From positions 1 to 62,304 of IMG/VR virus record IMGVR_UViG_3300022745_000002: a DNA stretch of 62,304 nucleotides; one strand, 5' to 3'. Both the position numbers and the translations under genes were made by a program. The notes beneath the pieces were generated by a model. It saw nothing but the letters and a program-made list of their open reading frames with translations. It was not told the DNA's origin and made no database searches. Below, in pieces: positions 9,017 through 62,304 of the stretch (position 1 is its first letter; each line of letters opens with the position of its first letter). The stretch comes from a virus.

Positions 9017-9054
9017 AACGCAATAAAATTACCCGGATTTTTCCACAAGCCGGG

Positions 9055-9083
9055 TTGACTTAGGTGGGCCACTAACTCATAAA
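9055..9083 (+). promoter_or_regulatory. Early promoter cassette A (TTGACT-N17-CATAAA with a conserved spacer)
   Basis: TTGACTTAGGTGGGCCACTAACTCATAAA. Four near-identical copies exist in the window. Confidence 0.6.
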
Positions 9084-9734: not shown

Positions 9735-9753
9735 AATAATCCACAGGAAGGTG

Positions 9754-9782
9754 TTGACTTAGGTGGGACACTAACTCATAAC
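9754..9782 (+). promoter_or_regulatory. Early promoter cassette B
   Basis: TTGACTTAGGTGGGACACTAACTCATAAC, with AAAATAATCCACAG 7 nt upstream. Confidence 0.6.
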
Positions 9783-18843: not shown

Positions 18844-21246
18844 GTGGCCCAACCCGCAGTCGGAGACTACAAATTGAAAGCCGCAGATTTCCTAGCGCAC
18901 ATCTTCGCCGATTGCAACGGCGTCCCCGTCACGGCGACCAAGGCCGACGGCTATAACTCGCGGCGCTGGTCGCCCGGCATCGACCCGCCCGAGGGCGTGA
19001 CCTACTTCTGCATCTCGACGGTGCGCGACGTGAAGCGCTCGCGCGTGCTCGGCCGCCAGACCGAGGATCTCGTGCTCACCTACGTGATCGTGCTCGACGA
19101 TGTGGGCACCAAGGTTCCACGGGAAACAATCCGGTTAAAACCCTCTTATATCCTCGAAAGCTCGGCCGGGAATTTCCAGTACGGCTACGTGCTCGCCGAC
19201 GGCATCGACCCGGCGCGCGCGGCGGCGGTGATCGAGGCGCTGGCGGCGGCGGGCTACACCGACAAGGGGTCGAAGCGGGCCGATCGCATCATGCGCGTGC
19301 CGGGCTCCCTGAACGACAAGTACGACCCGCCCTTCGTGTCGCGGATCGTCGAGTGGAGCCCCGGGGTCGACTACACCCTGTCGGAGCTCTGCGTCGGCTT
19401 CGACGTCGTGCCGACCGATACGGCGGCGCAGGGTGCGCTTCAGCCGCTGGCCGAGGGCGAGGTCGACCCGGTCTTCGAATGGCTGCAGGCGCACGGTCAC
19501 GTGCTGGGCGGCCCCAACGCCCGGGGCTGGTACCCGGTGCGCTGCCCACAGGAGGCCCAGCACAGCGGCGAGGTCGACCACGGCACGGACTACATGCCGG
19601 GCAACCCGGGCGCCTTTGTCTGTCTCCATGGCCACTGCCAGACCTACCGCACCGCCCAGCTGCGGTCGTGGATCCTGCAGCAGGATCCGGCGGCCGAGGT
19701 CGGCGTCATCGACCGGCAGCAGGTGGCACTGGTCGGGCAGAGACTGGGGGCGGCCCTCGGATTGGATCTATCGGCCGCCCCGTCGCAAGATCGCCTTCGG
19801 CCAACCGAAGGGTCCGGCGACAGCGGCAGCCTAGCTGCCCTTTACGCGGCCCTGCAAGCGGCGGCGGGCCCCGGTACCATCTTCCACCGCCCGGCACCGC
19901 CCGAGGCCACCCAAAGCCTCTCCCAGCGCCTTGCAGCGGCCATCGGCGCGATCTTCCTCGACCCGTCCCTCCTCCCCGACCCCGACACCCTGCCGAACGG
20001 CAACGCGGCCCGCCATCAGGCGGTAACTGCACCGCGAGTGCATCATGTCATGAGCCTGATCGGCATGACGGCCCGGCAGAACGTGCTCACGAACGCGATC
20101 GAGTGCAAATTCTCGTCGTTCGAGGGGTATGATTTCAGTACCGATGCATCGGAAGGGGCTGTCGACGTGCTCGTCCACGCCTGTGTTCGATGCGGCATGC
20201 GTGGTGCGGAGGCGGTTCGGCAGGCCCTTGCAAATTATGCATCGGAACGGCGCTACAGCCCTGTCGCGGAATGGATCCTGTCTGCACCGTGGGATGGTGT
20301 CAGCCGTCTTCCGGCGCTGTACGACACGATCAAAATGCGCGATCCGTCGATGGATGGGTGGAAACAGGTCGCCATCCGACGCTGGTGCATCCAAACCATT
20401 GCTGCGATTAGAAACTGGGAGCCGGGCTTTGCGCCCGAGAGCGTCGGCCATGTGCTGGTGCTGCAGGGCGAGCAGGGTGCAGGCAAGTCGTTCTGGGCCG
20501 GGTCGCTGATGCCCGCCCAGTGGCGCACGCTGGGCATGTCGCTGAAGCTCGACCACGGCGAGCGCGACGCGGTGAAGCGGGCCACCTCCACGCCGATCAC
20601 CGAGCTGGCCGAGGTCGACGGGTCGTTCCGGCGATCGGACACGGCGTCGCTCAAGAACTTCCTCACGGCGCCGGTCGACATCTACCGGCCGCCGTATGGC
20701 CGTATCGAGCTCTCCAAGCCGCGTGGGACGTCGTTCATCGCCTCGGTGAACCCGGAAGGGTTCCTGCTCGACCAGACTGGCGAGCGGCGCTTCTGGCCGC
20801 TGGCGGTGGAGAGCTGCAACTACGAGCACGGCATCGACATGCAGCAGTTCTGGGCCGAGGTCTGGACCCTGTACGAGGCGGGCGAGATCTTCTGGCTCGA
20901 GAAGGGCCGGGAGCAGCACCTGCATGCGCTGGCGTCGGCGGCGCACCATGCCGACACCGACGTCACTTTCATCGTCGAGGATCTGGCCGTGCGGCGACAG
21001 GCCTTTTGCGACCAGAAGTTGTGGGTGCACGCCAACGCCAGAGAGCTCGCCCGGCACTACGGCGTGAAGGGTCTGCCGAGCGTTTATCAGGATCTTGCGG
21101 AGGCCCTGAGACGCGAAAAGTACCGGGGTGCAGTGGTGAAGGGAAAAAGGGGGTTTTTCCTGCCGCCGTTCGAACAATCGCTGTCGGCCGCGCAGATCGC
21201 TGGGTTCAAGGTCATTAGCGGGGGTGCACTGGACGAAAATAAATAG
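18844..21246 (+). CDS. Primase-helicase (VirE/D5-like, with a zinc-binding primase region and a P-loop NTPase)
   Basis: CPQEAQHSGEVDHGTDYMPGNPGAFVCLHGHC zinc motif. Walker A LQGEQGAGKS. 800 aa. Confidence 0.9.
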   Translation: MAQPAVGDYKLKAADFLAHIFADCNGVPVTATKADGYNSRRWSPGIDPPEGVTYFCISTVRDVKRSRVLGRQTEDLVLTYVIVLDDVGTKVPRETIRLKPSYILESSAGNFQYGYVLADGIDPARAAAVIEALAAAGYTDKGSKRADRIMRVPGSLNDKYDPPFVSRIVEWSPGVDYTLSELCVGFDVVPTDTAAQGALQPLAEGEVDPVFEWLQAHGHVLGGPNARGWYPVRCPQEAQHSGEVDHGTDYMPGNPGAFVCLHGHCQTYRTAQLRSWILQQDPAAEVGVIDRQQVALVGQRLGAALGLDLSAAPSQDRLRPTEGSGDSGSLAALYAALQAAAGPGTIFHRPAPPEATQSLSQRLAAAIGAIFLDPSLLPDPDTLPNGNAARHQAVTAPRVHHVMSLIGMTARQNVLTNAIECKFSSFEGYDFSTDASEGAVDVLVHACVRCGMRGAEAVRQALANYASERRYSPVAEWILSAPWDGVSRLPALYDTIKMRDPSMDGWKQVAIRRWCIQTIAAIRNWEPGFAPESVGHVLVLQGEQGAGKSFWAGSLMPAQWRTLGMSLKLDHGERDAVKRATSTPITELAEVDGSFRRSDTASLKNFLTAPVDIYRPPYGRIELSKPRGTSFIASVNPEGFLLDQTGERRFWPLAVESCNYEHGIDMQQFWAEVWTLYEAGEIFWLEKGREQHLHALASAAHHADTDVTFIVEDLAVRRQAFCDQKLWVHANARELARHYGVKGLPSVYQDLAEALRREKYRGAVVKGKRGFFLPPFEQSLSAAQIAGFKVISGGALDENK

Positions 21247-21249
21247 GCG

Positions 21250-21510
21250 GCGGGACAAGGTGTTAGGGCCACTAGGGTGATGTGAGGATGCAGCGGAAGG
21301 TTTCCACTGCACCCTCTGAAAAATGTTTGATAATCAACGTACTAGGTTCAATAGGGTGTAAGGGTGCAGTGGAATTGTATTGTGAGGGGATAATACATAG
21401 AGATAGTTATCATATATGTACTAATATAACAGTCAGGGGAATATATAGGATTTCGGTGCACCCTCTGCACCCGCGATAGCCGGGCGGATATAACGCTTCA
21501 GGTCGAAATG
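21250..21510. other. Putative replication origin: AT-rich core flanked by short GC-rich repeats
   Basis: The most AT-rich stretch I noticed in the window (21385-21450). Exact inverted 12-mer CCACTGCACCCT (21304-21315) / AGGGTGCAGTGG (21361-21372). GTGCACCCTCTGCACCC at 21456-21472. AGGGGA-AATA-ATAG occurs twice. Lies directly downstream of the primase-helicase. Confidence 0.45.
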
Positions 21511-21514
21511 GCAG

Positions 21515-21543
21515 TTGACATAGGTGGGCCACTAGCCGATAAC
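21515..21543 (+). promoter_or_regulatory. Promoter cassette E
   Basis: TTGACATAGGTGGGCCACTAGCCGATAAC, followed by GGAGCTTCCCATG at 21577-21590. Confidence 0.6.
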
Positions 21544-21587
21544 GCTCACGCGACCAATCGGGCGCAACCACCACCACGGAGCTTCCC

Positions 21588-22499
21588 ATGACGATCGACA
21601 CTTGCAACCTCAACGACGATATCTCGGACCTGTTCGGTGGCACGCCGACGGGTGAGCGCCGCCAGCTGCCGATGGACGAGGCCAGCGTGCGCATCCGGGC
21701 CACGGTGCCGGTGTTCGCCGAGACCTGCCCGAAGTGCAAGGGCTCGGGCCGGTTCACGAGTTACAGCGGCCGCACACTCGGCCAGTGCTTCACCTGCAAG
21801 GGCGCGGGCAAGCGCACGTTCAAGACGGCGCCCGAGGTTCGCGAGCGTGCCCGCGATCGGGCGGCCGAGCAGCGGGCGACTGTCGTGGCCGACCACAAGG
21901 CCGAGATCCAGTGGCTGATTACGAAGCTGCAATCGCCTCGTCTGCCCGAGGGCTACGCCGCCATGCTGCGTGACTTCCTCGACAAGCTCAGCAACGGCCG
22001 CTCGCTTACCGACGGGCAGCTTGCCGTCGTCACCAAGGGCATGGCTCGCGATGCCGAGTATGCCGCCCAGCGTGCGCAGCAGGCCGAGCAGCGCATGCAG
22101 GCTGCTCCGCTCGTGGATGTCAGCAAGCTGGTGGCAGCGTTCGAGTTCCGTGCGAAGGCTGCCAAGAAGGCAATCCTTCGCTTCAATGGCGTGACGCTCT
22201 CGTTGAAGAACGATGGTGTCACGATTTACGTGAAGTCGACCGATCGCAAGGTCGAGGGCCAGTATGGTCTGCAGGGCGAGTATCTCGGCAAGATCGTCGA
22301 AGGTCGCTTCGTCGCCACGCGGGCTTGCACGCCTGCGGATATCGAGGCGCTCAAGGTTGCGGCTGCGGATCCTCTGGTCGCCGCTGTCGCCTACGGTCGC
22401 ACGACGTCGAGCTGCAGCTGCTGTGGCCTGACGCTCACCAATGCCCTGTCGATCGAGCTGGGCATCGGCCCGATCTGCCGTTCGAAGTGGGGGTTCTGA
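21588..22499 (+). CDS. Zinc-finger protein with two DnaJ-type CxxCxGxG repeats and a C-terminal CxxCG...GIGPxC ribbon
   Basis: CPKCKGSGR, CFTCKGAGK and CSCCGLTLTNALSIELGIGPIC. The last resembles a DUF6011-type motif from memory. Confidence 0.8.
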   Translation: MTIDTCNLNDDISDLFGGTPTGERRQLPMDEASVRIRATVPVFAETCPKCKGSGRFTSYSGRTLGQCFTCKGAGKRTFKTAPEVRERARDRAAEQRATVVADHKAEIQWLITKLQSPRLPEGYAAMLRDFLDKLSNGRSLTDGQLAVVTKGMARDAEYAAQRAQQAEQRMQAAPLVDVSKLVAAFEFRAKAAKKAILRFNGVTLSLKNDGVTIYVKSTDRKVEGQYGLQGEYLGKIVEGRFVATRACTPADIEALKVAAADPLVAAVAYGRTTSSCSCCGLTLTNALSIELGIGPICRSKWGF

Positions 22500-22603
22500 T
22501 GGAATACGATGTTGCTGAAATCGACGCGATGATCGACTACTGTCTCGTGTCAGAGGATGCAATGTATCCCGACGATCCGATGTACGAAGAGGAGGATCGA
22601 TGA
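22499..22603 (+). CDS. Small acidic protein (34 aa)
   Basis: TGATG overlap with the preceding gene. Below the track threshold. Confidence 0.35.
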   Translation: MEYDVAEIDAMIDYCLVSEDAMYPDDPMYEEEDR

Positions 22604-22866
22604 TCGAAGTCACGCCCGCCTATCTCGACAAGCAGCTCACGCAGCTGGACATGCAGAATGTCGAGCTCGCGCGCATCGCCGACGTGGCGCCGACCAGCGT
22701 GCAGCGATGGTTGAACGGTTCGAGCCCGGTGCCGAGGTCGATCGTCGTGATGCTCGAGCTGATGATCCACATCAAGAAGGGCTACGAGCTCACGCAGCCC
22801 GGCAAGATCTCGATGATCTGGGCAGAGCCGCCAGCGTTGCAGAACCTCGCCGGGAGGAAACGGTGA
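22600..22866 (+). CDS. Cro/XRE-like helix-turn-helix DNA-binding protein
   Basis: NVELARIADVAPTSVQRWLNGSSPVP fits a helix-turn-helix. Confidence 0.7.
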   Translation: MIEVTPAYLDKQLTQLDMQNVELARIADVAPTSVQRWLNGSSPVPRSIVVMLELMIHIKKGYELTQPGKISMIWAEPPALQNLAGRKR

Positions 22867-23042
22867 GGAAGCACTACCAGCGTCAGGGCTACAACGATAT
22901 CATGCGCATGCGCGCCAAGCAGCAGGTGCCGAAGAAGACCTCGTCGGAGGTCTGGGCGATGCTCAGGGATCTGCTGTTCAGCTGCTGCATGCTCTTCCTT
23001 GCGGCGTTCTTGATCGTGATCTTGGCCTCGATCAAATGGTGA
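22863..23042 (+). CDS. Small C-terminally anchored membrane protein (59 aa, GTG start)
   Basis: LLFSCCMLFLAAFLIVILASI is a transmembrane segment. GTGA overlap. Confidence 0.4.
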   Translation: MRKHYQRQGYNDIMRMRAKQQVPKKTSSEVWAMLRDLLFSCCMLFLAAFLIVILASIKW

Positions 23043-23611
23043 TGCTACAAAATATTCAAGAAGCGCGGGCAACGATTTGTGCGCGGCACTACACCCGATC
23101 GTGGCCATCGGGAAAGTCGTTGGTATACACGTATGAAGACGCGATTGTGGTGATGTCTATTCCGGCTAATTACAACACGGCGCGTTGGCTTGGCTGCGAA
23201 GCTAATCGAGTATGGGAATTGACGCGATTGTGGGCTCCAGATGGGCACCGTAAAAATTTACTGACCGAAGCGATCGCATATGCGTGCGCTGAATTTCATC
23301 GTGAAGATCTGGCTGACGCTTTGGTGTCGTATGCCGATCCTAATGCCGGGCACGGTGGAGGTGTCTACAAAGCGGCATCATGGACATTCCTTGGACAGTC
23401 CGAAGAAGCACGTGCGTATCGAACGGCTGATGGTCAAATTATTTCGCGTCGCAAGTTTCATTCAGGGTCCAAATCGATGAAGAAAGCTGAGATACTTGCT
23501 CTCGGTTACAATGAGCTTCGGCTTCCCGGGAAGCTTCGTTTTGCGCGCGGTTTAAACCGCCGAGGCAAGAAAGCTGTACGCCTAAAAATGCAGATGCTAC
23601 AAAATGCGTAG
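23036..23611 (+). CDS. mom: Mom-family (GNAT-like) DNA adenine modification enzyme candidate
   Basis: ARHYTRSWPSG..., WELTRLW and LVSYADPNAGHGGGVYKAASWTFLG match my recollection of the Mu Mom family signature. The gene is clearly AT-richer than its flanks. Confidence 0.7.
   Translation: MVMLQNIQEARATICARHYTRSWPSGKSLVYTYEDAIVVMSIPANYNTARWLGCEANRVWELTRLWAPDGHRKNLLTEAIAYACAEFHREDLADALVSYADPNAGHGGGVYKAASWTFLGQSEEARAYRTADGQIISRRKFHSGSKSMKKAEILALGYNELRLPGKLRFARGLNRRGKKAVRLKMQMLQNA
23041..23053 (+). repeat. 13-bp direct repeat GATGCTACAAAAT, left boundary of the Mom cassette
   Basis: Exact copy at 23593-23605. Confidence 0.9.
23593..23605 (+). repeat. 13-bp direct repeat GATGCTACAAAAT, right boundary of the Mom cassette
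   Basis: Exact copy of 23041-23053. Confidence 0.9.
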
Positions 23612-23622
23612 CGAGGTGTTAC

Positions 23623-24264
23623 GTGGCAAAGAAGGGTAAGTTCACGGATCAGCAGGAACTGTTCATCGCTGCCTACGTGAAGCGACCGAACGCTACGCGT
23701 GCTGCGCTGGCTGCTGGCTACAGCGAAGAGAGCGCCCATACGCAGGGTTGGCGTCTGTTGAAGAATGCAGATATCGACCGCGAGATCACACGCAGATTGC
23801 GTGGTATCGCCGGGCGCTACGAGGTTTCGGCCGAGCGCATCACGGCCGAGCTGGCGAAGATCGCGTTCGCGAATGCGGCCGACTATGTGAGCGTGCAGGA
23901 CGATGGTCAGGTCGTCGTCGACTTCACGGGCGTCGACCGCGATCAGATGGCTGCGATCGACAGCGTCGAGAGCGAGATGCTCGTCGGCACCGATCGGCCG
24001 GTCGTCATGAAAACGCGCTTCAAGATGCGCGACAAGCAGAAGGCGCTAATGGATCTCGCGCGGTTGCACAATATCGGCGCCGCGAACCGCACCGAGCTGA
24101 CCGGGCCCAACGGCGAGCCTGTCGCGATCGCGCAACACCACACGATCGACATCAAGCAGCTGCCTGCCGAGGATCGCGAACAGCTGAAGACCGTGCTGCT
24201 CGGCATCAAGGCTCGAGGCAACGGTCAGGTCACCGACGTCGAGCCGCTTGACGAGCAGGAATAG
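23623..24264 (+). CDS. terS: Terminase small subunit
   Basis: QQELFIAAYVKRPNATRAALAAGYSEESAHTQGWRLLKNADI is the classic Terminase_2 N-terminal HTH. GTG start. Confidence 0.85.
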   Translation: MAKKGKFTDQQELFIAAYVKRPNATRAALAAGYSEESAHTQGWRLLKNADIDREITRRLRGIAGRYEVSAERITAELAKIAFANAADYVSVQDDGQVVVDFTGVDRDQMAAIDSVESEMLVGTDRPVVMKTRFKMRDKQKALMDLARLHNIGAANRTELTGPNGEPVAIAQHHTIDIKQLPAEDREQLKTVLLGIKARGNGQVTDVEPLDEQE

Positions 24265-24581: not shown

Positions 24582-24659
24582 TGCGAAGTAGAGCAGCCCG
24601 GTCAGCTCGGCAGTTTCATACACTGCAGGTCGTGGGTTCAAATCCCACCTTCGCTCCCA
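24582..24659 (+). tRNA. tRNA-Met-type (anticodon CAU) with encoded CCA
   Basis: Hand-folded cloverleaf. Acceptor tGCGAAG / CTTCGCt. D stem GAGC / GCTC. Anticodon stem GCAGT / ACTGC with loop TTCATAC. T stem GTGGG / CCCAC with loop TTCAAAT. Then C-CCA. Position 1:72 is a T:T mismatch. Confidence 0.75.
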
Positions 24660-24694: not shown

Positions 24695-25099
24695 ATGTTC
24701 AAGATCCTGAGTACCTGCAAAGGTGGAGGGTATCGCTACTGTCGCACGGATCCGCCGCATCCTCGGCGCAACGCCAAAGGTCTGTACCCATTGCATCGCG
24801 TGCTGCTGGAGAACAAGCTCGGGCGCCTACTGCGAAAGGGTGAGATCGCGCACCACATCAACGAGGACAAGACCGATGATCGCCCGCGCAACATCGTGTT
24901 GCTCACGAACAGTAACCACACTGGGTTACATCATCCGGCAAAGAAGTTGAAGAAATTCAAATGCGTGATGTGCAAGAAATCTTTCCAGTTAAAGCCTCAC
25001 GTGGCACGGCTGCGCATGTCGCGTAACAGCACCAAGAAACTCGCGTGCTCCCCCACGTGTGGCGTTGCTTACGGTAACCGCTTGCGAGGAGCGCGATGA
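24695..25099 (+). CDS. HNH endonuclease (intact core plus C-terminal Cys4 finger)
   Basis: GEIAHHINEDKTDDRPRNIVLLTNSNHTGLHH, and CVMCKK...CSPTCG. AT-richer than the flanks. Confidence 0.9.
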   Translation: MFKILSTCKGGGYRYCRTDPPHPRRNAKGLYPLHRVLLENKLGRLLRKGEIAHHINEDKTDDRPRNIVLLTNSNHTGLHHPAKKLKKFKCVMCKKSFQLKPHVARLRMSRNSTKKLACSPTCGVAYGNRLRGAR

Positions 25100-33412: not shown

Positions 33413-33610
33413 ATGACGACGCACAAGCTCGGTCGCGAGGCATTCGAGGCGCAGTTCCCGAACCACGACCACTACGTCGACAGCGACGACGTCGCGCACG
33501 CGGATCCCGAGTGGTACGAGATCCCGAAACCGGCGCCGATGCTGCGCGCCGCTGGCGGCCCGGTCGTCGACAAGGCGCTCGCGCTCGTGCGGGGCAAGCG
33601 CAGCGGCTGA
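33413..33610 (+). CDS. Small acidic protein (65 aa)
   Basis: Packed between two larger genes. Confidence 0.5.
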   Translation: MTTHKLGREAFEAQFPNHDHYVDSDDVAHADPEWYEIPKPAPMLRAAGGPVVDKALALVRGKRSG

Positions 33611-35724
33611 TGGGCGACCTCTACAAGCCCATGACGCCCGGCTACATCAAGCCGCTGGCGGCGCCCGACTACAGCAAGCCGGACGATCTCGGCCTGTACA
33701 GTCATGGCGCCGTGGTCGCGAGCAAGATGCCGATCGCCAAGGGCACGCCGCAACAGATCAAAGGCTACCTCACCAAGCAGGGCGTGAAGCCCGACGAGTT
33801 CAAGTGGTCGGGCTACGACGAGAAGCTCGGCGGCAAGAAGATGGTGACGCGCGAGGAAGTGGCGAAGCATTTCCACGAGAACAAGCCCGCGATCACGGAA
33901 GAAGTGCTGGGCGACGATCCCGGCGCACGCGAGTGGCAGACTGACGGGCCGACAAAGTACAGCTCGTACGTGCTACCCGGCGACAGGAACTATCGCGAGC
34001 ACGTGCTGACGCTGCCTAACACAGCTTTCGAGAAAGAACATGCCGCGATTGAAAACCGTTTTGCCCGCGCGCGTCGCGAGGCAGCTGAACGGCTATCCGC
34101 GCTGAAGAAATTGGCGGAAGAACACGGCAACGAGCATCCTGTTACGTCAGAGGCGTTCAGAAAATACGCCGAAGCGGCCAAGGCTGAAAGTGATCTATCA
34201 GCTGCGCTGGAAGCAAGTCATCGCAAAGGAGCTTCCTCGCTGTACCAGTCAACGCATTGGGAGCAGCCCAATGTGCTCGCGCATCTGCGGCTCAGCGATC
34301 GCCCATATTCAATGGAAAAAGGCGAACGCGACGAAACAGGACATCGGCGCACCAACTTGAAGGCACTGCATCTCGAGGAGTTGCAGAGCGACTGGGCGCA
34401 AAAAGGGCGGGAACACGGTTTTAAGTCCGCGCCGCTCAATGAGACAGAACGTCTCGAATTGTCGCGCATGACCGACCCGCTAGCCCACGGGTTGCCTGAA
34501 AATCATCCGATAGATTGGACGCGTCGCGATGAACTGGAAGCGCGCGCAAACGAAGCGTCGCACGATAAAAAACCGCCACACGCGCCCTATGTCGACAGCA
34601 CTTCCAAGTGGGTCGACCTCGGCCTGAAGCGCGCGCTCTACGAAGCGGCGAAGGGCGGCTACCACAAGCTCGTGATCACGCCGGGCGAGGAGCAGGCGAA
34701 GCGCTACGACCTGTCGAAGCACATCAGCAAGATTCACTACGACAAGGACACGAAGAATCTTGTCGCTTACGATCATAGTGGCCAACCAACTTTGGATAGC
34801 ACTGCGACGCCGGAAGAACTGCACAAGCACATTGGCAAGGAAGCAGCAGAAAAATTGTTGCAGGCACCTGCTGGCGGCGGCTTCCAACACGAGCTTTCAG
34901 GCGTTGACCTCAAGGTCGGCGGCGAAGGCATGAAGGCCTTCTACGATCGCATGCTGCCGCAGGCGCTGCAGAAACTGGCGCAGCGGCACGACCCGGCAGC
35001 CGAGGTGAAGCTGCACGGGCACGATCTCACTGCGTCCAAGCATCCTAAATGGGCTCCTGCAGCCTTGCATGAAAATTCAGTTGAGCATGGCCACGGCCGC
35101 TCGGTGCCGCTGCATTCGCTCGACATCACGCCGAAGATGCGCGCGAGCATCCTGAAGGGTCACGCGCATTTCGAAACCGGTGGCGCGGTCGAGGGCTATG
35201 CGCGCGGCGGCGCGGTCAATCACAATCCGACCGAGGCGCAGAAGGCGGCTGGCAACTACGCCAAGAAGCACATCAGCTTCCAAGGCCTGCAGATCGCGAT
35301 CGAGAACGAGAAGGGCTCGATCCGCAAAGGCAAGAGCGCGAACGGCCACCAGTGGCGCTGCGTGCTGCCCGCCGACTACGGCTACCTCAAGGGCACGGTC
35401 GGCGCCGACAAGGATCACGTCGACTGCTACGTCGGCCCCGACAAGGACAGCCACATCGTCTTCGTCGTGAACCAGCACGTGCCCGGCAAGGGCTTCGACG
35501 AGCACAAGGTCATGCTCGGCTTCAAGACCGAGGAAGACGCGCTATGTTGCTACGTGGCCGCGTTTTCCGACGGGTTTGGCGCCAAGCGCATCGGCTCCGT
35601 CGAGACCATGTCCCTTGACGGCTTCAAGAAGTGGTTGCATCGTGGCCGCACTACAAAACCTGTAGCGCCGGGGTCGGTCGTCGACCATGCGATGCGGCTG
35701 GTGGCTAAAGGAGCAAGCGCATGA
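33610..35724 (+). CDS. Multi-domain polyvalent-type virion cargo protein with a C-terminal inorganic-pyrophosphatase-like domain
   Basis: LPADYGYLKGTVGADKDHVDCYVGPD...VFVVNQ...FDEHKVMLGF resembles the family I PPase core (Y..NYG.IP.T..GDGDPLD.LV). TGATG overlap start. An internal AT-richer segment spans roughly 34000-34900. Confidence 0.8.
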   Translation: MGDLYKPMTPGYIKPLAAPDYSKPDDLGLYSHGAVVASKMPIAKGTPQQIKGYLTKQGVKPDEFKWSGYDEKLGGKKMVTREEVAKHFHENKPAITEEVLGDDPGAREWQTDGPTKYSSYVLPGDRNYREHVLTLPNTAFEKEHAAIENRFARARREAAERLSALKKLAEEHGNEHPVTSEAFRKYAEAAKAESDLSAALEASHRKGASSLYQSTHWEQPNVLAHLRLSDRPYSMEKGERDETGHRRTNLKALHLEELQSDWAQKGREHGFKSAPLNETERLELSRMTDPLAHGLPENHPIDWTRRDELEARANEASHDKKPPHAPYVDSTSKWVDLGLKRALYEAAKGGYHKLVITPGEEQAKRYDLSKHISKIHYDKDTKNLVAYDHSGQPTLDSTATPEELHKHIGKEAAEKLLQAPAGGGFQHELSGVDLKVGGEGMKAFYDRMLPQALQKLAQRHDPAAEVKLHGHDLTASKHPKWAPAALHENSVEHGHGRSVPLHSLDITPKMRASILKGHAHFETGGAVEGYARGGAVNHNPTEAQKAAGNYAKKHISFQGLQIAIENEKGSIRKGKSANGHQWRCVLPADYGYLKGTVGADKDHVDCYVGPDKDSHIVFVVNQHVPGKGFDEHKVMLGFKTEEDALCCYVAAFSDGFGAKRIGSVETMSLDGFKKWLHRGRTTKPVAPGSVVDHAMRLVAKGASA

Positions 35725-48698: not shown

Positions 48699-49412
48699 AT
48701 GGTTGCCGGATACACCTACTCGTCATACGTCGATGCGCTGTCGCGCCTGCTCGTCGTCGACAGCACCAACGACAACTTTCAGGCGCTGCTGCCGTCGATC
48801 ATCGACTACGCCGAGCTGCGGCTCTGTCAGGACATCGACTTCCTGTCGACCGTCACGTCCTACATCGGCACGGTATCGCCCGGCTCGCGGCAACTTACCT
48901 TTCCGATCGCGACCTTCATCACGCTGCAGAACGTCAATTTCCTGACGCCAGCGGGTACGGCCGACCCCAACATCGCGTCGCGCAATCCCTGCCTGCCCGT
49001 CACCAAGGAATACCTGAATTTCGAATGGCCGAGCTCGCAAGGCGCCGGGCTGCCCAAGAAGTTCGCCATGGTCAACCAGAACACCTTGGCGCTGGGCCCG
49101 TGGCCGGATCTCGCCTACTCGGTCGAGCTCGTGGGCACCTACCGCCCGCCGTCGTTGTCGGCGACCAATACGACGACGTTCATCAGCACGTACCTGCCGT
49201 CGCATTTCATGATGGCGTCCATGGTCTACGGATCCGGGTACCAGCGTAATTTCGGCGCGCAATCCGGCGACCCGGCAATGGCCGTGAGCTACGAGAGCCA
49301 GTATCAGGCACTTCTCAAGTCCGCGCAGCTCGAGGAGGCGCGCAAGAAATTTACCTCGTCTGGTTGGACATCTATGTCGCCAACTGTAGCAGCTACTCCG
49401 TCGCGTGGCTGA
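48699..49412 (+). CDS. Tail tubular A / adaptor-like protein whose last ~13 codons are of foreign (AT-richer) type
   Basis: 237 aa, directly upstream (ancestrally) of the 733-aa tail gene. 3' end MSPTVAATPSRG* is duplicated at 49985-50023. Confidence 0.7.
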   Translation: MVAGYTYSSYVDALSRLLVVDSTNDNFQALLPSIIDYAELRLCQDIDFLSTVTSYIGTVSPGSRQLTFPIATFITLQNVNFLTPAGTADPNIASRNPCLPVTKEYLNFEWPSSQGAGLPKKFAMVNQNTLALGPWPDLAYSVELVGTYRPPSLSATNTTTFISTYLPSHFMMASMVYGSGYQRNFGAQSGDPAMAVSYESQYQALLKSAQLEEARKKFTSSGWTSMSPTVAATPSRG

Positions 49413-49984
49413 ACATGAAAACATGCAGCACTTGTCGTGTAAGCAAGCCGGTTGAAGCTTTCGATATAAATCGCGCCAAAAAAGATGGCCGACATAATGC
49501 GTGTCGTGCTTGCGACAGCGCACGCAAAAAGAAAATGCGTAAAGACAATACGGATGTTTTCAAAGCTAAAGATCGCGCGCGCTACATCGCAAACAAAACT
49601 GAAGAGCTAGAAAAACGTAGAAAATATTATGTCAATAATCGTGCTACCGTAATGGCGCGCGTGACCGCGTACCAACGTCAGAACAGGCCGAAATATCGAG
49701 AATTCATTCGCCGCTGGTATGCGGCGCATCCTGAGAAAGCAGCCTATTACACTGCGAAACGAAGGACAGCTAAAATGCGCGCGCAACCCAACTGGCTGTC
49801 AGCAATACAGCTTGCACAAATTCAAGAATTCTATGACGTCGCGCATGCGAGAACGGTACAGACTGGCGAAATTCATCACGTCGACCACATCGAGCCGCTG
49901 CAGGGGAAGACCTCGCGAGGTTTGCACGTGCCGTGGAACCTGCAGGTGCTGACGGCGGCCGACAATTGGTCGAAAGGTAACGCT
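49290..49984 (+). mobile_element. Free-standing HNH cassette plus donor-type 3' tract of the upstream gene (boundaries approximate)
   Basis: An AT-richer block ending where the GC-rich resident remnant begins. Confidence 0.6.
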
Positions 49985-50023
49985 ATGTCGCCCGCTCCAG
50001 CTGCGTCACCATCGCGGGGCTAG
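49415..50023 (+). CDS. HNH endonuclease, reading through into the resident remnant of the upstream gene
   Basis: N-terminal CSTC...CRAC finger. Core GEIHHVDHIEPLQGKTSRGLHVPWNLQVLTAADNWSKGN. C-terminal MSPAPAASPSRG*. Confidence 0.9.
   Translation: MKTCSTCRVSKPVEAFDINRAKKDGRHNACRACDSARKKKMRKDNTDVFKAKDRARYIANKTEELEKRRKYYVNNRATVMARVTAYQRQNRPKYREFIRRWYAAHPEKAAYYTAKRRTAKMRAQPNWLSAIQLAQIQEFYDVAHARTVQTGEIHHVDHIEPLQGKTSRGLHVPWNLQVLTAADNWSKGNAMSPAPAASPSRG
49985..50023 (+). pseudogene. Stranded resident 3' end of gene 48699..49412 (13 codons including the stop)
   Basis: ATGTCGCCCGCTCCAGCTGCGTCACCATCGCGGGGCTAG versus 49374-49412. By hand count, 27/39 nt and 9/12 aa are identical. Its stop lies 3 nt before the next gene's ATG. 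Confidence 0.75.
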
Positions 50024-50026
50024 GCG

Positions 50027-52228
50027 ATGCCCCATCAGACACTCAAGCTCATTCCGGGCGTCGACCTCAACACGACCGAGGCCCTGAACCAAGCGGGCAT
50101 AACCGCCAGCCAGCTCATCCGCTTCCGGCGCGACCTGACGAGTGGCGTGGCGCTCGTGCAGAAGCTCGGCGGATGGCTGCGCATCTTCCCGAGCGCGTTC
50201 CCCGCGATCGTGCGCGCGCTCTGGGCATGGCAGGACACCAACAAGAACAAGTATCTCGCCGTGGGTTGCGAGCCTTCGGCGACGCCGGGCGTGAATTCGC
50301 CGCTGCTTGTGCTGCCGTACCGCAACGGCACGAGCGCGGGCTCCCTGATCGACATCACGCCGCACGTGCTCGAGGACAATGTCGCCGTCGCGGTCTCCAC
50401 ACTCACGACGACGAACCTCGTCACGATCAAGGATGTCGGCAGCAACATCACCGTCTATGACTCCGTCTTCATCCCCGCGCATATCAGCGTGGGCGGCGTC
50501 ATCCTGTTCGGTTTCTATCCCGCGATCGCGGCAAGCCCCGACACGTATCAGATCCTGCTGGTCGACCAGTTCGGCAATCCGATCTTTCCGACGGCGGCCG
50601 TGACCAACGGCGGTGCCGTGGCGCAGTTCACGACAACCAGCGGCCTGCAGTCGGTGACCGTCACGCTCAACGACCATGGCTACGAAGTCGGCGACACGTA
50701 CCCTATCCTGATCAGCACAGCCGTCGGCGGCGTCGTGCTCGCGGGCAACACGCTCGTGCAGGCGGTGACCGACGCGAACCATTTCGTGATCTACGCGCCG
50801 AACGTGGCCTCGAGCACCGCTACGGTCTCGATCAACGGCGGCGAGGCGCGCTACGACTACTATATCGGCTTCGGTCCGTTGCCGACCGGTACGGGCTTCG
50901 GCATCGGGGGCTTCGGTCGCGGTGGCTTCGGTACGGGCATTCCGCCAGTGGCGCAGCCCGGCGCCAACATCGCGACACTGGATTGGGTACTCGACAACTG
51001 GGGCGAGATCCTGATCGCGCTGCCGACCGATACGCTTTTCGGGTCGATCGATGGCACGACGTATAACGGCGCGCCGCTGTTCTACTGGTCGCCCGAAGCC
51101 AACACCGCGTCGGCCATCGCCATCGCCAACGGCCCCGTCGCGAGCGCATCCTTCTTCGTCGCGATGCCCCAGCGGCAGATCGTGGCGCTCGGTACGACGA
51201 CCAACGGCGTGCAGGATCCTCTTCTCGTGCGCTGGTGTGACGTCAACGATTTCTTGAGCAAGACGGCGTGGGTAGCGTTGCCGACCAATCAGGCGGGCCA
51301 GTACCGCCTGACGCGCGGCTCGCTCATCGTCGGCGGTTTGCAGGCCAACCAGCAGGGTCTGATCTGGACCGATGTCGGCCTCTGGGCGATGCAGTACATC
51401 GGCACGGGCGATGCCAATGCGTCCGTCTACAGCTTCAACGAGATCGGCAAGGGCTGCGGGCTCATCGCGAAGAAGGCCATGGGCACGCTGGGCGGCGTCA
51501 CCTACTGGATGGGCGGCACCGAGACGACGGCGCCGACAGGTTCCGTCGCGAGCCTCACCAATACCGGTCAGTTCTTCAAGCTTGCGGGCAACGGCGTCGA
51601 GATCATGGAGTGCTCGGTCTGGGATGCCGTCTTCCAGAATATCGATCGCAACAACCTCTACAAGATCCGCTGCGCAGTGAACTCGAGCTTCAACGAGGTC
51701 GTCTGGTACTACCCGAGCGCGAACGGCGGCGGCGAAGTCGACAGCTACGTGAAGTACACGGTCAACATGAACGTCTGGGACTATGGTTCGCTCGGGCGCA
51801 CGGCATGGGTCGACCAATCCGTGCTCGGCCAGCCGATCGGCGCGGATCCGAACCGGCTCGTGCAGCAGCATGAAGTGTCCTACGACGCCGACGGCCAGCC
51901 CTTGGTCGCGAGTTTCCAGACGGGCTACTTCACGTTGAACGACGGCGAATTCCTGACGTTCGTCGACCAGTTCTGGCCCGACATGAAGTGGGGTCCGTAC
52001 GGCAGCACGCCGAATGCACAACTCCTGCTCACCTTCTTCGTCACCGAGTATCCCGGGCAGACGCCGCGTCAGTACGGACCTTTCACGCTCTCGCAGGCGA
52101 CGACCTACGTGACGCCGCGCTTCCGGGGGCGGCTCGTGTCTATCCTCTTCCAGTCGGTCGATGTCGGCACCTTCTGGCGCGTCGGCGCGAACCGGTATCG
52201 CTTCAACCCCGACGGAAAGTTCCTCTGA
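50027..52228 (+). CDS. Tail tubular B / nozzle-like protein
   Basis: 733 aa, following the adaptor-like gene as in T7-type gp11-gp12 order. No motif verified. Confidence 0.7.
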   Translation: MPHQTLKLIPGVDLNTTEALNQAGITASQLIRFRRDLTSGVALVQKLGGWLRIFPSAFPAIVRALWAWQDTNKNKYLAVGCEPSATPGVNSPLLVLPYRNGTSAGSLIDITPHVLEDNVAVAVSTLTTTNLVTIKDVGSNITVYDSVFIPAHISVGGVILFGFYPAIAASPDTYQILLVDQFGNPIFPTAAVTNGGAVAQFTTTSGLQSVTVTLNDHGYEVGDTYPILISTAVGGVVLAGNTLVQAVTDANHFVIYAPNVASSTATVSINGGEARYDYYIGFGPLPTGTGFGIGGFGRGGFGTGIPPVAQPGANIATLDWVLDNWGEILIALPTDTLFGSIDGTTYNGAPLFYWSPEANTASAIAIANGPVASASFFVAMPQRQIVALGTTTNGVQDPLLVRWCDVNDFLSKTAWVALPTNQAGQYRLTRGSLIVGGLQANQQGLIWTDVGLWAMQYIGTGDANASVYSFNEIGKGCGLIAKKAMGTLGGVTYWMGGTETTAPTGSVASLTNTGQFFKLAGNGVEIMECSVWDAVFQNIDRNNLYKIRCAVNSSFNEVVWYYPSANGGGEVDSYVKYTVNMNVWDYGSLGRTAWVDQSVLGQPIGADPNRLVQQHEVSYDADGQPLVASFQTGYFTLNDGEFLTFVDQFWPDMKWGPYGSTPNAQLLLTFFVTEYPGQTPRQYGPFTLSQATTYVTPRFRGRLVSILFQSVDVGTFWRVGANRYRFNPDGKFL

Positions 52229-61836: not shown

Positions 61837-62304
61837 TACGTTCACTCCCAATAAGGGCCTCGAGCAGCCCGCGAACAACGACGACGTCGATACGTGGGAC
61901 GTCCCCGTCAACGCCAACATGACCGACGTCGACATCGCGCTTGGCGGCTCGACCCTGCTCAACGCCACTGCCCTTGCAGGCAATGTCGCGCTCACGCTCA
62001 CGCAGTACCGGCCGTTCGCGCTGCTGATCTCGGGCGCGCCGTCGGCGGCGGTCAACTATCAGGTACCGGCCGGTGTCGGCGGTTTCTGGTCCGTCTACAA
62101 CGGCACGACCGGCGGCAAGCAGATCTCCGTCGGATCCGCCGCAGGCGGTAGCGCGATCAACATCCCGGTCAATACGTCGGTGCTCATCACCTGCGACGGT
62201 TCGGCGAGCGGCATGCGCGTGGCCAACACGCCGGTCGCCGTCGCGGGCGGATCCAACACGCAAGTCCAGTACAACTCCTCTGGCATCCTCGCGGGTACGG
62301 CGGG
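61829..62304 (+). CDS. Tail fibre, 5' portion (continues at 128..1265 after removing the terminal overlap)
   Basis: ATG overlaps the stop of the 58630 gene. Begins MVSTFTPNKGLEQPANNDDVDTWDVPVNANMTDVD. No stop before the window end. In frame with 3..1265. Confidence 0.85.
   Translation, partial: MVSTFTPNKGLEQPANNDDVDTWDVPVNANMTDVDIALGGSTLLNATALAGNVALTLTQYRPFALLISGAPSAAVNYQVPAGVGGFWSVYNGTTGGKQISVGSAAGGSAINIPVNTSVLITCDGSASGMRVANTPVAVAGGSNTQVQYNSSGILAGTA
62178..62304. repeat. Terminal overlap, identical to 1-127
   Basis: Exact 127/127 match. Confidence 0.95.

Follow-up and report, generated by a model that had tools for sequence, protein, structure and literature searches.

A Mom-family gene between a small native gene and terS in an environmental SU10-like podophage genome, and the empty site in its relatives

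The mom locus and the empty site in relatives

We analyzed a stretch of viral DNA of 62,304 nucleotides, IMG/VR virus record IMGVR_UViG_3300022745_000002, and we call this whole stretch the window. The subject of the analysis is an open reading frame (ORF) at positions 23036 to 23611, here named mom, which encodes a Mom-family enzyme with the GNAT fold. An earlier note, made from the letters alone, had reported a 191-residue ORF with Mom-like motifs at this place, and we confirmed the ORF and the quoted motifs on the + strand. The gene is located between a small hydrophobic ORF and terS, and it is bracketed by two copies of a 13-bp sequence that is present only once in relatives of this phage. 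The features of the locus are as follows.

22600..22866, + strand: gene of an 88-residue helix-turn-helix (HTH) protein with a weak HTH_3 match, native to the phage lineage, conserved upstream neighbour
22863..23042, + strand: small hydrophobic ORF of 59 residues, native, as read from the sequence and its translation
23036..23611, + strand: Mom-family ORF, 191 residues from ATG 23036 or 189 residues from ATG 23042
23041..23053, + strand: upstream copy of the duplicated target GATGCTACAAAAT; extended copy 23034-23053
23054..23592, + strand: foreign insert proper, 539 bp, without counterpart in any relative of the phage
23593..23605, + strand: downstream copy of GATGCTACAAAAT; extended copy 23586-23605
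23596..23612, + strand: palindrome GCTAC-AAAATGC-GTAGC, sole complete copy
23613..24264, + strand: terS with its own Shine-Dalgarno sequence; Terminase_2 2.4e-27, PHROG 51

Three in-frame codons, ATG 23036, GTG 23039, and ATG 23042, are candidate starts of mom. The public copy of the protein (P0001) has 189 residues, that is, it starts at ATG 23042. The earlier note had also described the gene as richer in A and T than both flanks, and the values obtained strongly bear this out. The G+C content (GC) of the insert was 0.516, against 0.643 for the window, which places it in the lowest 0.8% of 539-bp windows, and the GC at third codon positions (GC3) of mom was 0.47, against 0.79-0.90 in the primase gene, the DUF6011 gene, the HTH gene, and terS. 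In the insert we found no further ORF of note, no transposase, no integrase, and no terminal inverted repeats.

The exact 13-bp bracket that the earlier note had pointed out is indeed there: GATGCTACAAAAT occurs exactly twice in the window, and no further copy was found even when 1 mismatch was allowed. The repeat extends upstream to 18 matches in 20 positions (AAATGgtGATGCTACAAAAT versus AAATGcaGATGCTACAAAAT). The spacing of the two copies is 552 bp (3 x 184), so that both are read in the frame of mom and the ORF takes the form M-V-MLQN...MLQNA*. The upstream copy holds the stop codon of the small ORF, TGA 23040-42, which overlaps the mom ATG at 23042 (TGATG). The downstream copy restores the palindrome, encodes the residues MLQN at the end of the protein, and gives mom its last five codons and the stop codon TAG 23609-11. 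The GAGGTG and the GTG start of terS were left untouched. Only the first codons of mom are derived from the recipient, and homology to other Mom genes begins about ten codons in; one Mom homologue starts with M-N-I-Q, matching N6-I7-Q8 of the window protein. The native ends of the donor gene are predicted to lie near ATG-AAT-ATT-CAA on the 5' side and ...AAAATGCAGATG on the 3' side.

The earlier note had observed that deletion of one repeat and the intervening DNA would join the upstream stop cleanly to the terS leader, and had proposed a search for an empty site. We gathered relatives through terS and through a cluster member, and found exactly this arrangement in 13 loci belonging to five sub-lineages (L005/6, L007-10, L011-13, L014-16, and L074). 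A scan of the JGI metagenome contigs with an alignment of the HTH protein gave no match, in a collection from which the contig of the window itself is absent. The gene order at these loci is the HTH gene, the small hydrophobic ORF, a spacer of about 28 bp, and terS. At every one of these loci the spacer has the sequence stop-TGCTACAAA(A/T)TGTGTAGC-Shine-Dalgarno-start, that is, stop-TGCTACAAAWTGTGTAGC-Shine-Dalgarno-terS. When L005 and L006 were compared with the window by blastn, the alignment stopped at 22860, inside the HTH gene that ends at 22866, and resumed exactly at 23593. In the relatives, GATGCTACAAAAT is a single-copy native sequence which consists of the 5' arm and the loop of the palindrome (GCTACA/TGTAGC), and the insertion point is the palindrome loop.

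The empty-site loci alone give no polarity. Deletion between short direct repeats is common, and it leaves one copy and an identical empty-site sequence, so that mom might have been ancestral at the site and lost in the relatives by recombination between the 13-bp repeats. Pope et al. (2011) met the same ambiguity between gain and loss in the mycobacteriophage LRRHood (PMC3029335). We nevertheless regard a loss as highly improbable here. The terS product of the window is 77% identical to those of L007 and L011, which are 83% identical to each other, and this group is nested in a set with L005 and L014 at 65-69%. Because the window groups with L007 and L011 inside a set that includes the empty L005, L014, and L074, loss would need at least two to three independent identical deletions, whereas a single gain accounts for the same pattern. 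With a GC3 of 0.47, where the neighbours have about 0.8, the segment stands out as foreign DNA that has not been ameliorated, and the closest Mom homologues sit in unrelated gene neighbourhoods and phage backbones. Thus, the empty sites in five sub-lineages, the foreign GC3, and the position of the homologues support the view that mom is not native to the SU10-like lineage and was gained on the branch of this phage by a recent horizontal acquisition; a recent acquisition had already been suggested in the earlier note.

Proposed route of the insertion

According to this comparison, a 539-bp, AT-richer segment consisting of an ORF only entered the palindrome loop between the small ORF and terS, and the 13 bp to the left of the insertion point (18 of 20 in the extended form) were duplicated in this event. 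The upstream target copy preserves the TGA of the small ORF and gives mom its ATG within TGATG, and the downstream target copy rebuilds the palindrome and the terS leader and gives mom its last five codons and stop. The mechanism was most likely illegitimate recombination guided by microhomology, or else template switching, with another, co-infecting phage. Selection would retain those events that spare both neighbours and lend the newcomer a start signal.

To see how mom genes are bordered elsewhere, we surveyed 47 non-redundant loci of the Mom clade for exact repeats within 60 nt of the ORF start and stop. A bracketing repeat of at least 12 bp was found in four loci, namely, the window (13 bp), L021, L024, and L066, and the other 43 had none. 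The chance expectation is about 0.001-0.002 per locus. In L021 (2962-3535), the 12-bp repeat is made up of the DNA polymerase stop and the primase start, so that MASK is the beginning of mom as well as of primase. L024 (1240-1916) has a 15-bp repeat around mom. In L066 (2948-3616), a repeat with 31 matches in 32 bp is a duplicated coupled gene junction, and mom and the next gene both begin with M-T. The duplications in these three loci give mom the start codon of the downstream gene, and those in L021 and L024 also give it the stop of the upstream reading frame. Since the site lies just before terS, an origin of the duplication from filled-in cos ends was considered as well; it was dropped, because the duplications in L021, L024, and L066 lie away from terS. 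For the L021 insertion, the sole relative found, L078, is 54% identical and lacks mom, and its intergenic region differs, so that the junction is not comparable and no empty site was obtained.

These results raise the question of whether an active mobile element, such as a transposon-like or site-specific cassette, left the 13-bp repeat as its target-site duplication. Target DNA is duplicated exactly at the flanks, the insertion lies in a hairpin loop, other Mom-clade loci have bracketing duplications of 12, 15, and 31/32 bp, and the proportion of bracketed ORFs was higher for mom (4 of 47) than for the other ORFs in the surveyed loci (5 of 255; Fisher p = 0.036). We consider an active element very unlikely all the same, since the insert is one ORF that has none of the transposase, integrase, or terminal inverted repeats that were looked for, and since the lengths of the duplications vary from 12 to 32 bp and their sequences are mutually unrelated. 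Moreover, non-mom ORFs show the same signature, with 5 of 255 bracketed against about 0.5 expected at 64% GC (0.2 under uniform composition), and the 43 mom loci without any repeat stand against a mobile element too. Constraints from Shine-Dalgarno sequences and from start and stop codons inflate such matches. A 29-bp duplication in a mycobacteriophage has already been described and attributed to recombination (PMC3029335). We therefore read the bracketing repeats as a general outcome of illegitimate recombination and not as a mobility system specific to Mom. Among the non-mom ORFs, small ones with exact bracketing repeats were seen at L001 1964-2278 (25-mer), L025 3857-4354 (19-mer), and L003 779-1255 (15-mer).

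A further idea is that a dedicated route, for example, template switching at stalled hairpins or gene junctions, spreads ORF-only accessory genes between unrelated phages. Four independent mom insertions with a junction duplication and a weak enrichment over the control ORFs bear on it, and we give it little credence. If it were true, 12-32 bp of the target would be duplicated in such an event, so that the incoming ORF would receive the start and stop signals of the recipient, and the conserved palindrome before terS would be a favoured place of entry.

The encoded protein and its predicted reaction

The family membership of the protein is secure. The only Pfam match was Mom (PF25680), with an E value of 4.3e-19 and 69.4 bits against a gathering cut-off of 27.1, and the alignment placed residues 8-186 on profile positions 10-198 of 202. 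PHROG 1384, "Mom-like DNA modification protein", was matched at E 5e-24, and the sole match in the sequence search of the PDB was 8bv8 (Mu Mom S124A; E 1.2e-7). We also built an AlphaFold2 model of the product on 35 homologues (predicted local distance difference test score 92, predicted template-modelling (TM) score 0.81). In Foldseek the top matches of this model were 8bv8_B and 8bv8_A, with E values of 2e-9 to 4e-9 and TM scores of 0.63-0.65, and the next GNAT protein followed at E 7e-4. The identification of the protein as Mom in the earlier note, for which it had suggested a profile search, thus held, and the search did not lead to an unrelated acetyltransferase family.

It might be argued that the protein has no role in DNA modification, being either a common GNAT acetyltransferase or a remnant that has lost its activity. 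The fold is that of GNAT proteins, the weaker Foldseek matches are RimI, GCN5, and aminoglycoside acetyltransferases, and some GenBank records label the homologues plainly as "acetyltransferase". We find this extremely unlikely, because Mom is the sole significant sequence match in Pfam and the PDB, its fold match is about five orders of magnitude above those of the other GNAT proteins, the ORF is full length with respect to the profile, and all the residues that are invariant in the clade are intact.

The homologue search gave 643 matches. Among them 120 were listed, each with the Mom domain and with 55-78% identity to the query; because of this, the clade appears to be under purifying selection. 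It is a large, environmental clade, seen only in metagenomic phage contigs and in bins of metagenome-assembled genomes (MAGs). A scan of genome contigs with the Mom alignment found only MAG contigs, which were binned to many unrelated phyla, and therefore we draw no inference on the host from the homologues. One clade member, P0022 (L002 5574-6428), has 284 residues and carries an N-terminal extension of about 95 residues and a C-terminal tail in addition to the Mom domain; its contig also carries GIY-YIG and Endonuclease VII genes.

The residues of the window protein were then compared with those of Mu Mom. The positions are as follows.

Mu H58/Y59, window H18/Y19: conserved; invariant in all alignments
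Mu R111, window R64: conserved
Mu D149, window D101: conserved
Mu Y159, window Y111: conserved; invariant in all alignments
Mu S124, window T77: conservative change with the hydroxyl kept; T is near-invariant in the window clade
Mu R151, window N103: not conserved; N in the whole window clade
Mu R154, window H: differs
Mu W48, window Q8: not conserved
Mu W181, window gap: not conserved

As shown in the list, the essential catalytic residues R111, S124, and D149 (Mu numbering) all have counterparts, S124 in the form of T77. In a wider alignment of Mu Mom, the window clade, and the Mom-like proteins of Arthrobacter, Listeria, and Enterococcus phages, all the family-wide invariants (H58, Y59, E108, L109, R111, A148, D149, G156, Y159, A161, and G168) are present in the window protein. 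At Mu position 151, Arg was found only in Mu among the aligned lineages, the others having V, G, or D, so that R151 is a peculiarity of Mu and not a feature of the family. The W48 dimer contact and the basic N-terminal tail (Mu 11-19) are absent from the window protein, and they are not conserved across the family either. An HTH-like insertion in the GNAT fold is needed for the activity of Mu Mom. The segment at about 127-160 of the window protein aligns with this insertion (Mu 175-209), and in the predicted model it would form two short helices (H138-142 and H150-155) between strands.

In the reaction of Mu Mom, Gly-tRNAGly donates its glycine to the N6 of adenine in double-stranded DNA; the co-substrate is glycyl-tRNAGly and not acetyl-CoA, and the glycyl group rearranges on the base to N6-carbamoylmethyl-adenine (ncm6A), an adduct that shields the DNA against many restriction enzymes (PMC13219725). 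Since the catalytic core and the equivalent of the HTH-like insertion are kept, the same type of reaction is expected, and the window protein most likely moves an aminoacyl group from a charged tRNA to the adenine N6 of double-stranded DNA. By analogy with Mu, it probably modifies the DNA of the phage, and an adduct of the ncm6A type with an anti-restriction function may be inferred. That the adduct is exactly ncm6A would be about an even bet. Caution on this point is necessary, because the clade differs from Mu at positions 124, 151, and 154 and at the N-terminus, and because the authors of the Mu Mom study hold that structure does not reveal the substrates.

That is, a Mom-like fold could make a different adduct, with another aminoacyl-tRNA, another base, or another sequence context. 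Besides S124, R151, and R154, which are T, N, and H here, neither W48 nor W181 is kept, and about 40 residues at the N-terminus are absent; the positions that differ from Mu do so across the whole 55-78% identical clade; and the authors of the Mu Mom study state that neither the co-substrate nor the substrate is predictable from the structure (PMC13219725). On the other hand, R111, D149, H58, Y59, and Y159 are kept together with the HTH-like segment, R151 is conserved in no other Mom-like lineage either, and randomly chosen metagenomic homologues, which were not compared by sequence with the window clade, were active in the assay used for Mu Mom (PMC13219725). We therefore consider a different adduct unlikely, but less so than the other alternatives discussed here.

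Several points weigh against our interpretation and should be stated together. For the adduct, the tRNA co-substrate, and the target motif, we extrapolate from a protein that is only 23-26% identical in protein alignments and 21% identical in the structural alignment. Mu Mom loses all or much of its activity when R151, W48, or W181 is changed to alanine, and none of the three is kept here; Ser at position 124 of Mu Mom is replaced by T77, and the first 40 residues or so of Mu Mom are missing from the clade. The homologues found reached at best 77-78% amino acid identity, and none was a donor with near-identical DNA. In principle, the same end state could arise from deletion between the repeats in the relatives, and the insertion mechanism is not observable, so that we can only infer it. 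Finally, repeats of 13 bp are not unusual in this genome, and one such repeat is weak evidence when taken alone: the window holds 66 pairs of repeated 13-mers no more than 1 kb apart (by our reading of the list, about 30 distinct repeats), against a mean of 4.2 in Markov-1 simulations. It is the empty sites, and not its length, that give the repeat its meaning. A second exact 13-mer repeat lies inside mom itself (GACGCGATTGTGG at 23138-23150 and 23221-23233); we take it to be due to chance, and it shows that 13-mers recur fairly often in this genome.

Taken comprehensively, a Mom-family enzyme encoded by a foreign insertion, with the expression and the mechanism that we propose, seems to be the best explanation of the locus, and we hold it with considerable confidence.

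Expression, genome context, and comparison with known systems

No sigma-70-like promoter was found upstream of mom in the promoter scan, and no terminator at its 3' end in the terminator scan; one weak terminator-like hairpin lies inside the ORF at 23520-35 on the + strand. The total number of promoter and terminator sites found was within the expectation from shuffled sequences. No purine-rich Shine-Dalgarno sequence is present in 23020-23035. The earlier note had seen neither a Com-like activator nor a cluster of Dam sites. The first of these statements stands: Mu Com gave no alignment with the small upstream ORF in BLASTP, and tblastn of Mu Com against the whole window found no homologue (best E 0.44). 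Because promoter, Shine-Dalgarno sequence, terminator, and Com homologue are all lacking, we suppose that mom is translated by coupling to the small ORF, probably as the last gene of the replication or early block, just before packaging.

The second statement does not hold to the letter, since three GATC sites lie just upstream of the mom start at 23012, 23018, and 23030. We do not read these sites as evidence of Mu-type or Dam control, however, because they are in the coding sequence of the native small ORF, because the mom-less relatives L011 and L074 keep GATC at two of the three positions, and because GATC is over-represented 2.9-fold genome-wide (589 sites against 203 expected from base composition).

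The palindrome of the window differs by one T>C change from GCTACA-AAATG-TGTAGC in the relatives, and it contains the mom stop TAG. It lies at 23596-23612 in the window, at 2861-2877 in L005, and just upstream of terS in L007, L011, L014, and L074. In five sub-lineages whose terS proteins are 65-83% identical, TGCTACA-AAWTG-TGTAGC(A/G) is invariant except at W, and its RNA folding energies are unremarkable (z -0.4 to -1.1), which means that the signal of the palindrome is conservation and not stability. The palindrome may serve as an operator, as a packaging signal, or as an element in the translation of terS. Two other roles were considered and rejected: it has no T-run, as an intrinsic terminator would, and it is not a repeated PeSL-like cassette boundary, because there is one full copy and the 1-mismatch match at 35650 differs in the loop.

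The window has a terminal overlap of 127 bp (1-127 = 62178-62304), and this overlap shows that the assembly closes into a circle of about 62,177 bp. The genome encodes a family A DNA polymerase, an exonuclease, a helicase, a primase-helicase, terS, terL, a portal protein, and an SU10-type adaptor. From the circular closure and this gene set, the window is a complete genome of an environmental SU10-like podophage with about 64% GC. Among GenBank phages no close relative was found: the DNA search matched only tRNA-Met and short fragments, and tblastn gave only Mom matches of 25-30% identity.

The HTH protein is 78-88% identical to its homologues in the mom-less L005, L007, L011, and L014, and its gene is 87% identical in nucleotides to that of L005/L006. 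The small ORF has no Pfam match; it starts at a GTG that overlaps the stop of the HTH gene (GTGA), and its C-terminus reads ...LASIKW* in the window and ...LASINW* in the L011 homologue. The downstream gene had been taken for terS in the earlier note, and the Terminase_2 match agrees with that. It is the first packaging gene, with a Shine-Dalgarno sequence GAGGTG at 23613-18, a GTG start at 23623, and a coding region of 23623..24264.

Several other features of the genome were observed. A tRNA-Met gene (24582-24659) and an HNH endonuclease gene (24695-25099; GC 0.556) lie between terS and the remaining packaging block, and the Rfam search of the window found tRNA only. This is a second variable spot adjoining terS, in that L010 has an HNH gene directly after terS and none was called in L007. 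Islands of low GC, as measured in 539-bp windows, were seen at 49101-50060 (minimum 0.48), where the SU10-adaptor gene ends and the next ORF follows, and at 21001-21660 (minimum 0.52), which covers the 3' end of the primase gene and the intergenic region between primase and DUF6011. A 29-bp motif, GTTGACTTAGGTGGG(C/A)CACTAACTCATAA, occurs at 9054-9082 and 9753-9781, 699 bp apart; the pair looks like promoters, with TTGACT, a 17-nt spacer, and CATAAA or CATAAC. The last 150 residues or so of a 737-residue virion-type protein (33511-35721) have matches in many PHROGs, among them the "DarB-like antirestriction", minor head protein, and endolysin families; this stretch probably represents an enzymatic domain that an ejected protein shares with these families.

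The locus provides a base-pair-resolution record of a putative anti-restriction gene entering a tightly packed phage genome with its neighbours undamaged. It also offers a near-isogenic natural comparison, because one lineage has a fresh Mom-family insertion and several close lineages have the intact empty site. It can thus serve as a starting point for asking whether the environmental Mom clade, with T124, N151, and a short N-terminus, makes a Mu-like tRNA-dependent adenine adduct, what restriction protection a single captured ORF confers, and how a gene that arrives without expression signals is expressed.

Regarding known kinds of insertion, a classical moron, in the concept of Hendrix and Juhala, brings its own promoter and terminator. 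Like morons, mom is an accessory gene of deviant base composition between genes that are adjacent in relatives; unlike the classical moron, it has neither a promoter nor a terminator of its own. The T4-type PeSL-flanked cassettes (Arbiol et al. 2010) reportedly have a stem-loop at the cassette boundary, whereas the palindrome of the window is a single native element of the recipient and not a repeated mobile regulatory cassette. Nor does the insert correspond to a transposable element or insertion sequence, as there is no transposase and no inverted repeat joining the ends, and the duplications range over 12-32 bp. A closer parallel is the mycobacteriophage LRRHood, in which genes 43-46 form a 1.35-kb insert with 29-bp flanking repeats that are single-copy in relatives (PMC3029335). 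Both cases share the direct-repeat flanks, the single copy in close relatives, and accessory cargo of the counter-defence or immunity type. The window differs in that the duplication is shorter, at 13 bp, and lies in a conserved palindrome loop and the target supplies the start and stop of the incoming ORF.

The Mom-like proteins of PHROG 1384 (Arthrobacter Marthavirus, Listeria Pecentumvirus, and Enterococcus phiEf11) resemble the window protein in the family-wide invariants and in length, and their genes are likewise stand-alone accessory genes in otherwise unrelated phages. In contrast to the window protein, they have Ser at Mu position 124 and are only 25-30% identical to it; the window protein belongs to a separate, environmental clade. 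Mu Mom itself (8bv8; Silva et al. 2026, PMC13219725; Karambelkar et al. 2020, PMC7261163) shares with the window protein the PF25680 domain, the GNAT fold, the equivalent of the HTH-like insertion, and the residues H58, Y59, R111, D149, and Y159, and in both phages mom is a single-gene system adjoining the late or packaging boundary of the genome. Compared with Mu Mom, the window protein is 23-26% identical, lacks the first 40 residues or so and the W48 dimer contact, has T for S124 and N for R151, and lacks W181. The window mom has no Com activator and no recognizable promoter, so that it would have none of the control by Dam, OxyR, C, and Com, and its phage is a lytic-type SU10-like podophage whereas Mu is a transposable phage. 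Mom homologues are known to be widespread, and repeat-flanked phage insertions have already been described, so that the current understanding is unchanged. That is, the mom gene of the window is a further member of a known family, placed by a known kind of event, and unusually cleanly documented.

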